A stretch of 64,000 nucleotides of DNA from Podarcis vaucheri (lineage: Eukaryota): assembly GCA_965113315.1 (NCBI GenBank), contig OZ220364.1; one strand, 5' to 3'. Position numbers and translations under genes: made by a program. The notes beneath the pieces were generated by a model, which worked only from the letters and a program-made list of their open reading frames with translations, did no database searches and was not told the DNA's origin. Shown here piece by piece: positions 1 through 49,497 of this stretch. The first letter of the stretch is position 1. Each line of letters starts with the position of its first letter.

Positions 1-1373
1 GTCCACTGTGTTATCACACACTTATAATGTCCACTGTGTAACTGCATGGCAATTCCTCAGTCTTTGTTTTATAATTATATAGCAAGGCATGTAGCAAGCC
101 AGTACATGTTGAGTGGTCACACCAATCTTTTGGCATGTGTATTGCCTGAGTCTTTTTTGTGCAGTTTTCTTTGGAGTTTGTGTATGAGGGGCGCTGTAGC
201 ACAGGTACTTTCTTGAGGGAGATGTTGGTGCAACTACATTCATTCCTGTGATGTATGTTGCATAGATATCCCTACACACTCAATCACTTGCACTGTTTAG
301 TGTACCATGGTGAAGCCACATGGTAATTCTCTTTGGAACCGTTAGAGCCAGCCAGGTTGTCCCTTTACAGTGTTCTCATTGCTTGAACATGCAATTCGGG
401 TTCCAGTGAGATCAAAGTGTGGTTCCATTGAGTTCAATATCAAAACCCAGGAAGGGTCCATGGCGCATAGATTACTAAAGCACTTAACCATTCATACTGG
501 GGCTAAAATACAGGTTCCTGTTCAAGGGCTTTTGCCCAGGGATAAAGCTCATGTGTTTCTTACATGAGTTAAATATAAGTTGGCATTTTGTATCTAAGTT
601 TATCTTTTTCTGTGCTAGGCCTTTCTTCCAACCTTTACTGGAACTCTTTTTTAGAAAGTGTCTGAAGGTCTCAGTGGTAGTTACTAGAGATACACAAACA
701 CATACATCAATATTCTATTGTCCAAACTCAGGTGATATCCTAACCCTCAGAAACCTTGGGCATCTTTCGCTCTCAGGGGCTGTGGGTGTCTGGCCATAGA
801 ACACTTTGCAACTAAGCAGTACATTGTCACACTTCAATGTATTCGTTTTATCCCAGAAGCTTATATGCCATTTCCTCTGAAGGAGACAGATAAAAATGCA
901 TCTTGGTGAACCCAACAGGAGAATGTTTTTCCTATCTTGCCAGAATCACAAATCCTTCTTTTAGCTACAAATTTGTTGAACTAAGCTCTTCCTTCAGGGC
1001 TTGGGGTGTGGCCCAACACCTGTTGGGTGCACAGAACAGATGCATTTTCCATCGAGAATGATATGAGTGCAAGTCTCCAGACATTTCTCAGCTCTCTTCT
1101 TCCTCACTGGCACTTGTCTTGCTATCTCCTCCCTCCAGATTTGTGTGCACAGAACATGTGTGATGTGAGGCCACACAATAATGTTCTGCCTGCTTGTGTC
1201 AAAAAATATCAGTGCATTTGGTTGTGGGTATATTTTTAAAAAATGTAATCATGTGCTAATGAATTATCACTGATTTTCCAAATGGATGATTTTCCAAGTA
1301 GAGGGGTGGCCTTATTATCATGCTAATTTTCTTCATGTGTGTGATCCCTCTCCCTTTCTTTGCTATTCAGTGA

Positions 1374-6374: not shown

Positions 6375-6542
<168 letters not shown>

Positions 6543-8597: not shown

Positions 8598-8759
<162 letters not shown>

Positions 8760-9698: not shown

Positions 9699-9795
9699 GG
9701 GCCGGATGACTTTCATGGACATGTATGAGATGCTGAGACACATGTCTCCACCCCTGGGGCTAGGGAAGAAATGCCCTGCCCGTGTTGCTTATAAG
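9699..9795 (+). CDS. CACNA1A: CACNA1A mutually exclusive exon 37b (EFb)
   Basis: 97 nt, cag| and |gtagaa; (W)[32 protein letters not shown], paralogous to 37a. Confidence 0.96.
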
Positions 9796-20970: not shown

Positions 20971-22961
20971 TCAGAGGTAATAACAATTCAGGTTCCCCCC
21001 AAATTGCCATTTGTTCCAATCTATCACTAAAGAGCATGTTTTCCCTTGGAAAGGAACAGGGCAAGGGAAAACTTCTTGGACCCATGCTTTCTAGGCACGG
21101 CACAAGTGGAAAAGTCGACAAGCCCTGAGTGAGGCAGTCACCAAGAGGTGTGGCTATTGAGTTCTGGTTGCAAAGCAAAAATATAATTTCTACAACTACT
21201 GTTAAACTTTTGGTCAACTGCCAAAAAGTCCAGAGAGTCCATCCCCAGTCCTCTGTGAATTCTGAATGCAATGCAAAAGGAAGGTCTAAGGGATGAGAAG
21301 GAAAATAAGGTTGCTTCATCTTGTTTTATGAGGTGCCTCACCTTTGGGATCCACAACAGATCCTGCATATGGCCCAAAAGAAAGGCTTGACTCTGCAAGA
21401 TCTTCTGACAGGTTGAATTAAGTTATGTGACAGAAATGGATTTGATGCACAGGCCATGTGCCTTGTTCATGGACAGCTCAGGAACACAAGGTAATGTGAG
21501 GGCACAGGCAGCATTCTTACCAAATTGCCAAAGAGGAGGAAATTCTGAGTACCCAAGTACGAAGCACTGAGGAAGATCTGTTCAGTCTAATGCAGGCTGC
21601 TCTCCCAAGATTTACAGGTTTTCTGGACATCAGATTCCTGAGGGATCTTCCTACTTAATGTGTCATCATCATTATCATCACCATCATCTATATGTGTGTC
21701 TCCCTCTTTCTTTCTCCTCTTCCTTCAGAGTTTTTGATCTCATCTGTCATTCTGTGCACCTCTGTTCAGTGACATCCACTTAATGAACCCCAAGGACCCT
21801 GACCGTCTAACCCCCATTTCCATTGGTCCTATCTCAGCTAATGCACTAGCTGGTCAAGCCCCACCCTGAGCATCTTGTGTGATCTCCAGCCCACAGCCTT
21901 GGCTCAGGAATGGCACATGGCCCATAGTCTGTCAATTTCATTTCTTTCTTTTCTACCTTAAGGATGCACCCATTTTTTGCACCAAGAGCCCACAATCCGG
22001 ATCTCTCCCTTAGAGCAATCTATACCAGAGCTATGAATGAGTCTCAACGTGTTCTCTGTGCATGCTTTTGCACTGTGCTGCATGCTGCATGCTCTTTTTG
22101 CATGCTCTAGTCTTGCGCATTTGATGAAACCTGTTCTGTTGAATGTTTGTGTGCATTCTCCTTGGACCCCGTCCCTTTACCACTGCTGTCTACTGCTGTC
22201 TTGGATAGTTGGGATTTTATTTGGGTTTTTCCTTTGTTTTACACTTTTTTACTTTTATATAGACAATGAGCTCTTTGGGGAGAACTCTGTGTAAGTTTGG
22301 AAGAGGACCTTAAAAGGGATACATTCTGGAGAGGAGAGATTACATCATGAGAGACTTAGTTGGATAGGACACATTGGACTCATCTACAGCTAGGGGATGA
22401 GAGTAGCTCTAGTGACCCAAGCTAGGAGTCTAGAATATTCCTATTTCTGAAAACTGATTGGGATACAGTGGGCTAGAACAGAAGCCAGGAAACTGCCTCC
22501 AAGTCTAATGCAGACAATAGAAGGGTCTCCTTGCAGAGGTCTTCAGACTACAGTCATCTCTGGCTAAAGTCATTGGCAAAAACCCAGTAGATAATCTTGC
22601 AGAATGTTTAAGGTAAATCTCAGTGAGATGAATTTCTAAGCAACACGTTTAGGAGTGCAACCAGGTCCATACAGTTATTATGTGGGGGGGTTTCCAGGCC
22701 CATCTTCTAGTAGCTGATGTGGAATCCACATACCAGTATCTGAAAGCAGTTGGGTGAAAGCAAAATAAGGTGTGATAAGAGCCGAGTATCCAGATATTAA
22801 CATATTGCAACTGGGCTCTGGTCCTCATGATACTGGGTGGGAAGTGAGGTTAATCCATGAGTAGAAGGATTTGATGCAAGACAAAGTTATTGAACTCAGA
22901 GTTCTCCCCAGAGCTCATATACTCCTCTGTGCATGATAACCTGGGTGGTAGGGAGTTGTGA

Positions 22962-23102
<141 letters not shown>

Positions 23103-23259
23103 TGACACCACCATAAACACAGCAAGAGAGAGCAGTTTCTTTCCTGACAGATTAGAGAATTCTGGGAAATTAAATTACATATTGGAAAGCAAAGCCTGGG
23201 AAAAGTTTTCAATTAGCAATAATTTTGCCTCAGATTAACCTCATTAGCTACACTACTAT

Positions 23260-46770: not shown

Positions 46771-49497
46771 ATCTGGGTTTTGCTGTTCTAAAAATGAGAG
46801 AAGAAGAGACATTTAAACTAGTTTAAGACTTTGGTATAGATATGTTTATATAAGCAGAAGCTTCCATTGCTGAGATCCAGAAAAGATGGGTGTGGATGAC
46901 GATCCCTTCTGGATCAACATTACAACTACATACAAGGGCTCATTTCCAGTAAATGGTACAGAGGAAAACTCCCTATTGCATTTTGCCCCAAGTGATATCC
47001 TCCTTTCCTCCCATTTCAGGAATTGCTTCCTCAAAAGATACCCTCTTACTTCATACCTGTCCACCCTTCTTCACAGACACAGAAGGCATTTCACACAGAG
47101 TCTTGTCTGATTCTGATCACCTATTGAGTTACACACACACACACACAATCACAACGTGTGTGCACAGACAAGTATTGCAATGTCTGTGAAACCCATTTAC
47201 AATATCCCTGAGGTATCACAACAGGATACCACAAGTTCCTGTGGCTTGGACAAGGCTGCTTAGGCTATGTTCCTGCTAATTATACACATATCATGGACAG
47301 CATATTTCATGGCACTTATATAGAGAAAATGGGTGGAAAATTCTGTCACCTTTATTACTGGAGTACATCTTCTGATCAAAATAAGACAATTGAATAGTAT
47401 CAAAAAAAATTAGTTCATTCAAAGCTGAGTTCACACCTAAGGAAGTATGGGTTTGCAGGGTTTGATTTTCACAGGGCTTAGTCTGGATTCATTCTATTGC
47501 AGTGTTTGTATGTCTACAGCTTTGGAGCTGGAGCAATGCCAGGACTGCCAATTTAGTAGTGCAGTTGGCTCCCTTTATATATTAATGCAGCATGTTACCC
47601 CATCTCCATGCCAAATATTATATCCTGTAATGGGCCAAGAAAACAAAGGCTATCAAACTCACACTGAAGCTCACAACTACATTCCTTATTTATCTTCATA
47701 GTGTGGTACAAAAGCCAAAGAAATAATAAAGCCTACCACTTTAATTATAGAGAAAATTGAACAACATGAGGGTAGAGCCTCAAGACAGCGGTTGTACCCA
47801 GCTTTATGTGAACTGCATCAAAATTTTATTGGGTGAATGAGAATACAATTACTCGATGAGACTCTTCTTAAGGTCCTTTATTCCTTTGTTTTCCATTTAT
47901 TCCCCCCACTGCTGCACGCCGCCCCGCCGTTATCACACACGAAGTCATTTTCTTTGTTCCTATTTGTTTCCTTTGGACAATTTGGACGCTTTACTCGGGG
48001 TCTCCTGGCCAATCTGCCTTTATTTACATGTTTATTTCTGTATCCGTTGTGCTTGGCTCTGCTGTCACGGCGAGGGGCGGGCGCAGGTAAGATGGTTGGT
48101 GAGCAGAGAACAAAAATTCAAACCAATCCAGCGGATGGCCCTGCCTAGCTCGCTGGCCTATTTCTCCAGTGTCTGTGGTGTGACCCCTTTATTGTTACGC
48201 TGGTGGCACTGAACTCTCTGGGGTTTGTGAATCTGGAAAGTTTGGAATGAAGCTGCACCTGAAGAGACAGGCACACATGTAAGCTGTGCATGTCACATCC
48301 AAGCAAAACAAGAAAAAAGCAGAAAGACATGCATAAACTGTAGGCATGCATGCAATGAGCGTATATAGAACACAGGATATATGGCAGGCATGGGGAACAT
48401 GTGGCCTTGCAGATGTCAGCTCCCATCTTCCCTGACCATGGGCCATGCTAGCGTAGGCTAATGGAAGTTGTTGTCTACCAATAGCTGGAAGGCTTCATAT
48501 TTCTCATCCCTGGTATATGGGAGAGGGATGCCCAAGGGTGTGACAAGACTCTGAGGTACTGATAGATTTTCTCCAGCAGGGGATCAGTCAAATAGCAGTT
48601 TCAGGAGATATTTAAATTGGAATGGTGAAGTATTGGATCCCCTCCTCTAGTGTAATGGGCCCAAGCTATGTCTCTACAACTGCTTATTTGTTTAAAGAAG
48701 CATCAAGATATACAGTCACAGATCTCCTGACCTAGTCCAGTTTAGCCCTAAAATTCTATCCTAGGAAATTTCAAATTATGCAGTAATATATTTTGAACAT
48801 TAGGCATCTTCTCATAAAATTGACTTGATTTTCAGTAATGTATTCAGACTGCAAATTCTGGTTCTTCTGCAAAATTTAGTAAGTTAAAAGGAAAAGAGGA
48901 CACTAAAAGCATTATGTAGAATATGTATTATGGAGTTTGAACTGGGATAAGAAGCTATATTGGGAATGGAGATACAATCTATGATCAGTGGGACCCCCTT
49001 GAATTGTCAACAGAAAATTGCCCCTGTGTTTTAAAGTTCTTCCTGCAGCTCTGAGGGATTCCTCTTGTACATCCCCAAAATAAGAAGTTGAGAATCAAAG
49101 GATTCTTGCAGAATACCTATATTTGGTTCTAGAAATCTAAGTTCTGTGGCATGCAGCTGTGGTCTCTTGTAGATGGTGGTTTTCAGCTACACATACCAAA
49201 ATTAGATACAGACACATATGATACACAAACACACAAAGACACCCCATACAGATTTTGAGTCTTATGGCATACAAAAAGTTGTAAGTACAGCTAATACTGA
49301 GAGATGCAGGGCATGCATGTGTGTTTTTAATACAAAAGGATGCATATAAATTGTGTAAGTAAATATTCACAGCATACTAAAATACACAGTACAGGCACGG
49401 CATAACAAATAATATGCAGGTTTGTATGGCATACATAGGCATTCATAGATGCATGTATGGTGCAACATGATACAGAAAGAGATATTTCATTGAAATA

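Follow-up and report, generated by a model that had tools for sequence, protein, structure and literature searches.

A candidate RBFOX-associated splicing-control element with a predicted long-range RNA duplex in the CACNA1A intron before exon 38 of Podarcis vaucheri

The intron between exons 37b and 38 of the CACNA1A gene of the lizard Podarcis vaucheri contains a tight cluster of four TGCATG motifs and, downstream of it, two complementary arms predicted to pair over a long distance. The element is real, probably functional and apparently undescribed, while the kind of splicing element that it represents is known. We put the chances at about even that the RBFOX element and the long-range duplex together tune the splicing of 37a/37b to exon 38 and mask a cryptic exon. 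The 28-nt segment originally predicted to be an RBFOX-controlled poison exon appears, from the modelled folding, less likely to be a working exon than to form an arm of a folded element that controls splicing.

The window, i.e., the whole stretch of 64,000 nt that was analysed, carries the 3′ part of CACNA1A, and most of the exons match Cav2.1 proteins at 76–100%. The exons surrounding the element are as follows.

6414-6541, + strand: CACNA1A exon 36.
8660..8756, + strand: CACNA1A exon 37a, 97 nt, mutually exclusive with 37b; 100% to 37a-type proteins (tblastn).
9699..9795, + strand: CACNA1A exon 37b, 97 nt (exon mapping and tblastn).
22992..23097, + strand: CACNA1A exon 38, 106 nt, with a GC donor after it (exon mapping and tblastn).

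The choice between 37a and 37b (EFa/EFb) determines the EF-hand isoform of CACNA1A. The 36-37a-38 and 36-37b-38 joins both keep an open frame, and leaving out both 37a and 37b leads to a stop. The intron 37b-38 is 13,196 nt long here. The gene, intron and frame originally called for the 28-nt segment (CACNA1A, between exons 37 and 38) were borne out by the exon mapping. The donor after exon 38 is GCAAGT (23098-23103), and GT stands in its place in the comparison loci L013 and L014 and in CACNA1E of the same genome. Within the intron, the following features are considered.

21700..21731, + strand: pyrimidine tract and AG forming acceptor A1; an exon would begin at 21729 and have a stop at codon 3.
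22059..22104, + strand: cluster of four TGCATG (RBFOX motif); CT follows each copy, so that each also contains YGCY.
22210..22262, + strand: acceptor A2, with a U-rich tract, a 52-nt AG-free zone and the AG at 22261-22262.
22263..22290, + strand: candidate 28-nt exon x, frameshifting, with a stop at codon 10 (from sequence and frame).
22266..22292, + strand: 5′ arm of the predicted duplex, spanning the x body plus its donor GT.
22610..22618, + strand: stronger, unused-looking donor, rank 5/688, located in the part predicted to be looped out; used together with A2, it would define a stop-containing exon of 350 nt.
22894..22918, + strand: 3′ arm of the predicted duplex, ending 74 nt before exon 38.
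22930..22935, + strand: fifth TGCATG, between the 3′ arm (12 nt away) and exon 38 (57 nt away).

The four TGCATG were found within 46 nt exactly where they had been read (22059, 22079, 22086 and 22099), at −932..−892 relative to exon 38. TGCATG shows no overall excess in the window (64 copies vs. 60.3 expected), and the placement of 4 of the 32 plus-strand copies inside 46 nt was reached in 1 of 100,000 uniform placements. When the criterion was loosened to four GCATG per 150 nt at any place in the 13.2-kb intron, 32 of 2000 Markov simulations reached it. As a local hairpin, the cluster is no better than shuffles (z −0.62).

Comparison loci were obtained from a metagenome scan, which gave six loci, two of them (L013 and L014) holding the intron before exon 38. 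Exon 38 of these two loci is 93–97% identical to Cav2.1 vs. 63–66% to Cav2.2/2.3 where the same stretch was aligned. Judging by their sequences, they are presumably fish loci resembling two teleost paralogues. Both contain four GCATG within 150 nt, at −1255..−1075 from exon 38 in L013 (3/2000 simulations) and at −868..−745 in L014 (2/2000 simulations), and the CACNA1E and CACNA1B introns of the lizard genome reach a maximum of two GCATG per 150 nt. Hence, the position of the cluster relative to exon 38 looks conserved at the level of motif content. The primary-sequence alignment of the cluster block between the window and both fish-like loci was uninformative, as the blocks do not align. Relatives were not found in prokaryote genomes and viral contigs. 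A separate YGCY-rich block of 44 nt, 77% identical between the two loci, is located just before their GCATG clusters (L013:3461-3504 and L014:1668-1711; E 2e-4 in a small search) and loosely resembles the window cluster.

In mouse, a published RBFOX2 eCLIP peak from a beta-cell line (chr8:84617263-84617405; 51.6-fold, p 5.5e-11; PMC10676425) lies 386-528 nt before exon 38 in the corresponding intron; it is matched by position only and is presumably orthologous to the window cluster. The same supplements, of which 12 of 24 files were covered (Cacna1a rows 2/3, 2/5, 2/3 and 2/4 in the four files with matches), contain a 97-nt exon at 84615573-84615670, with a PSI difference of 0.154 in size, its sign unassigned, between Rbfox2-mutant and control islets (FDR 8.8e-4; PMC10676425). 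From the exon order and spacing, this exon is taken as 37b. The distance of the cluster is kept to exon 38 and not to 37b, which is 12.3 kb away here and 1.6 kb away in mouse. The corresponding intron spans mm10 chr8:84615670-84617791 in mouse and hg38 chr19:13224772-13227430 in human. The clusters in 2/2 fish-like CACNA1A loci and the RBFOX2 cross-linking in the matching mouse intron support the RBFOX element that had been proposed, and the four TGCATG probably make up a conserved site of RBFOX binding. As for the effect of such sites, activation of an exon is reported to go with RBFOX sites close to the 3′ splice site downstream of it, and RBFOX binding upstream of an exon is reported to correlate weakly with repression.

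From 24 to 27 bases of the 28-nt region are reverse-complementary to 22894-22918. The predicted duplex (−42.2 kcal/mol) is the best in 21700-22991 and occurs in both the MFE and the centroid folds, with a predicted pair probability of about 0.78. In pairing tests that were designed post hoc, with the arms and the motif already noticed, 0/1000 and 0/2000 shuffles were as good, which indicates complementarity beyond chance; among other native windows, 6/153 (about 4%) contain an inverted pair at least as good, and the pairs of four of these six have further copies in the DNA searched. In 1.6 Gb, the arm pattern has exactly two occurrences, one in each orientation (control 0), and the arms and the interior of the inverted pair are single-copy in a search that skips very common words. 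No target-site duplication was seen around the pair. The single-copy interior and the lack of a target-site duplication argue against transposon ends, and an origin from a MITE or inverted-repeat transposon was ruled against for this reason. Likewise, no other copy of x was found in a check for repeat origin. Between the block and the 37a/37b region, pairing did not exceed background (scores 26–28.5), no comparable duplex was found in the paralogues of the same genome, and the Rfam covariance-model search gave 0 matches at E ≤ 1 in window 21400-23000, L013 and L014.

The core of x, GGGGAG..CTCT, is common to L013 and L014, where it lies 223-244 nt after the clusters. A similar pairing is significant in L013 and mixed in L014. 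The best partner of the L013 arm ends 108 nt before exon 38 (2/2000, and 0, 2 and 0 of 100; fixed-arm tests), and the best L013 pair in the unrestricted test was matched by 40/1000 shuffles. One arm extent of L014 pairs 72 nt before exon 38 (0/100); the other L014 tests failed (1400/2000 in the motif-centred test; 40/100 and 51/100 for two arm extents). Whole-region folds give both fish duplexes a probability of about 0.

The favoured explanation assumes that RBFOX binds the four-TGCATG cluster and that the duplex loops out about 600 nt. With the predicted pairing, the cluster would lie about 236 nt instead of 888 nt from the exon 38 acceptor, bringing the cluster-bound RBFOX near this acceptor, with the fifth TGCATG at the base of the stem. 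RBFOX and the duplex would then influence whether 37a, 37b or neither joins exon 38. The duplex would also cover x together with its donor GT and loop out the stronger donor at 22612, so that x and the cryptic sites nearby would normally stay silent. We infer here that the duplex forms in cells, as well as its splicing target and the direction of its effect.

The strongest rival explanation, possible but doubtful, is that in this lineage x does function as a poison micro-exon, which RBFOX bound 160-200 nt upstream represses, probably with the help of the duplex, and which otherwise leads to NMD. All the letters of this prediction are in place: the U-rich tract, the AG, the 28 nt at 22263-22290 and the GTAAGT following them. 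After either 37a or 37b, x gives a stop at codon 10 that begins at the last base of x, as had been predicted, and this stop falls far upstream of later exon junctions, exons 38-47 being downstream of x. Splice sites were scored with an approximate matrix, under which the AG/GT sites of x are canonical and of usable strength. The acceptor ranks 3/951 among the intron AGs and, with its 52-nt AG-free zone, speaks for a working exon. The donor had been described as consensus, which is true of its intronic half (GTAAGT) but not of the exon side; because the exon end reads TGT, the donor is middling and ranks 55/688 among the intron GTs. The exon x is the sole pair of ≤51 nt that reaches its total score in the 13.2-kb intron. 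With the acceptor and donor scores of x itself as thresholds, five pairs with x-like scores were found in 206,804 bases of the lizard's own DNA. These are x itself, two real exon acceptors, one pair in a transposon-like repeat and one candidate in a CACNA1B intron (36 nt, stop-bearing).

The fish-like loci bear on this explanation in both directions. An acceptor is located 186-220 nt after the cluster in both of them, a distance like that of x, and early stops occur in every candidate exon of these loci. However, these candidates match x neither in length nor in sequence, and at the place of the x donor the loci read ATAAG and AGAAG, so that GT is absent in 2/2. In addition, the body of x is predicted to be sequestered in the duplex, and each of the three introns has its best-scoring acceptor elsewhere, upstream of the cluster. 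The weak correlation of upstream RBFOX binding with repression is in favour of the poison exon; the peptide of x after exon 37 occurs in 0/253 and 0/34 of the database proteins examined, which is a weak negative.

Published splicing tables provide a further weak argument against a poison exon here. No event in intron 37b-38 is present in a published micro-exon list or among the CACNA1A places listed from mouse and human AS-NMD tables (18/26, 30/35, 2/2 and 7/7), although exon 37 skipping of CACNA1A is among the contents of the mammalian tables. Run at default settings, rMATS misses unannotated splice sites. One AS-NMD study used these settings, and the absence from the tables is weak evidence because unannotated exons are easily missed. 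The supplements of PMC7821500 and PMC11419088 gave no match for Cacna1a.

CACNA1A already has a known poison exon in intron 31 (168 nt in mouse, 170 nt in human), with a reported PSI of 0.75–0.92 at E11 and 0.07–0.12 in adult brain, and it shows a non-neural-high pattern (PMC13078869, PMC11188260). This exon is also reported to change in Rbfox2-mutant islets (PMC10676425). The original prediction went on to suggest that x limits Cav2.1 to RBFOX-expressing neurons. This is the weakest step, because RBFOX2 is described as broadly expressed and binds the mouse intron in a beta-cell line, and it is weakened again by the non-neural-high pattern that the intron-31 exon shows. In the lizard, seven GCATG are found in about 440 nt, 1.35–1.8 kb before exon 32 (window 1-731 and L012:9698-10000). 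They are followed by a candidate exon at 619-731 (acceptor 10.8, donor 7.1) that ends 759 nt before exon 32 and is possibly the orthologue of the mammalian intron-31 poison exon, which lies about 720 nt before the next exon. A second GCATG-rich patch is located in the last CACNA1A intron (window 48287-48395).

The paralogous introns show features of their own. The CACNA1B candidate is located in intron 37b-38 at L010:7861-7896 (G000:C42:43394660-43394695), has very strong splice sites (scores 16.5 and 8.1) and an in-frame stop, and sits 1.8 kb before exon 38. In CACNA1E (L008), a long pyrimidine tract with an AG lies about 530 nt before exon 38, with a TGCATG 22 nt later. A micro-exon slot common to the three Cav2 genes was rejected for CACNA1E, where the candidate lies in a multi-copy inverted-repeat element.

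The favoured explanation and the poison micro-exon can be combined in a structure-gated switch existing since bony fish. In its folded state, the element would carry RBFOX to the acceptor of exon 38 and determine the 37a/37b choice; without the fold, or as long as transcription has not reached the 3′ arm, the 5′ arm would be spliced in as a poison micro-exon. We consider this combination unlikely. If true, it would mean that one element couples isoform choice to the NMD-based dosage of a haploinsufficient channel gene.

A quite improbable alternative places the regulated unproductive site at A1 (21729), which would open either a longer poison exon (e.g., one of 562 nt that ends at the x donor) or a lengthened exon 38, repressed by RBFOX bound inside. 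A1 is the strongest acceptor of the intron (rank 1/951). The rank-1 acceptor precedes the cluster in all three CACNA1A loci, at 258-346 nt (346 nt in L013, 258 nt in L014), and an in-frame stop follows it within 3-21 codons in 3/3. Against this alternative, the loci have neither a shared donor nor alignable sequence after A1, and the 1.26 kb after A1 contain no poly(A) signal here, yet one is present in both fish-like loci. No A1-derived tail was found in the 253 and 34 database proteins. A1 may start a longer unproductive exon, or its tract may instead be a binding site for pyrimidine-binding proteins.

Chance or decay, with the cluster as a degenerate short repeat and the inverted pair as an old local inversion or worn transposon ends with no splicing role, agrees with the equally good pairs in native windows, the failure of the cluster to align with fish and the global folds that do not favour the fish duplexes, but it is the least probable explanation and very unlikely given clusters in 2/2 fish-like loci vs. 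0/2 paralogues, the mouse eCLIP peak and the single-copy arms and interior without a target-site duplication.

CACNA1A is listed as dosage-sensitive (haploinsufficiency score 3), which is relevant to episodic ataxia 2 and epileptic encephalopathy. A 2025 review gives the splicing factors for CACNA1A exon 37a as unknown, and the five RBFOX motifs with the two arms are a precise candidate for the control of 37a/37b splicing. If the human intron shares this layout, deep-intronic disease variants could be sought in it, and splice-switching oligonucleotides might be aimed at it.

Distal RBFOX sites, RNA bridges and poison exons are already known kinds of mechanism. The literature search, which covered sources outside subscription journals and genome browsers, found no description of an exon or RNA duplex in intron 37b-38. 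Among RBFOX2-regulated AS-NMD exons, a UGCAUG upstream of the stop-generating exon is reported as the "NMD suppressed" layout (PMC3967051), and x has the same arrangement; the published exons were shown by iCLIP and NMD inhibition, whereas x is known from sequence alone. The intron-31 poison exon also belongs to CACNA1A, its inclusion triggers NMD, and it has a similar place before the next exon. It differs in lying in another intron, in being six times longer than x and in being documented by RNA data.

Another comparison is with conserved complementary regions, for which a blocking effect on cryptic splice sites is reported (PMC8052449). The CACNA1A duplex resembles them in being intronic, near a splice site and overlapping a candidate cryptic site; it differs in that the published regions were defined from human multi-species alignments. 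CACNA1 genes are not mentioned in the main text of PMC8052449.

The closest likeness is to RBFOX RNA bridges, reported for ENAH exon 12 and RALGAPA1 (PMC8052449, citing Lovci et al. 2013), in which distal (U)GCAUG sites are brought near a splice site by a long-range intronic duplex. Such bridges have conserved distal (U)GCAUG sites with RBFOX binding, and here motif clusters were found in 3/3 CACNA1A loci, with the mouse binding peak matched by position. The proximity rule reported for bridges allows at most 50 nt between the site and one arm and between the other arm and the exon (PMC8052449); the cluster is 162 nt from the 5′ arm and the 3′ arm is 74 nt from exon 38, and for this reason the CACNA1A element is not filed as a proven RNA bridge. 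The ENAH bridge brings a site to the regulated cassette exon, whereas the CACNA1A element would bring the cluster towards the constitutive exon 38. The exons on which it would presumably act form a mutually exclusive pair lying 12 kb upstream, and the 5′ arm itself is a putative cryptic exon.
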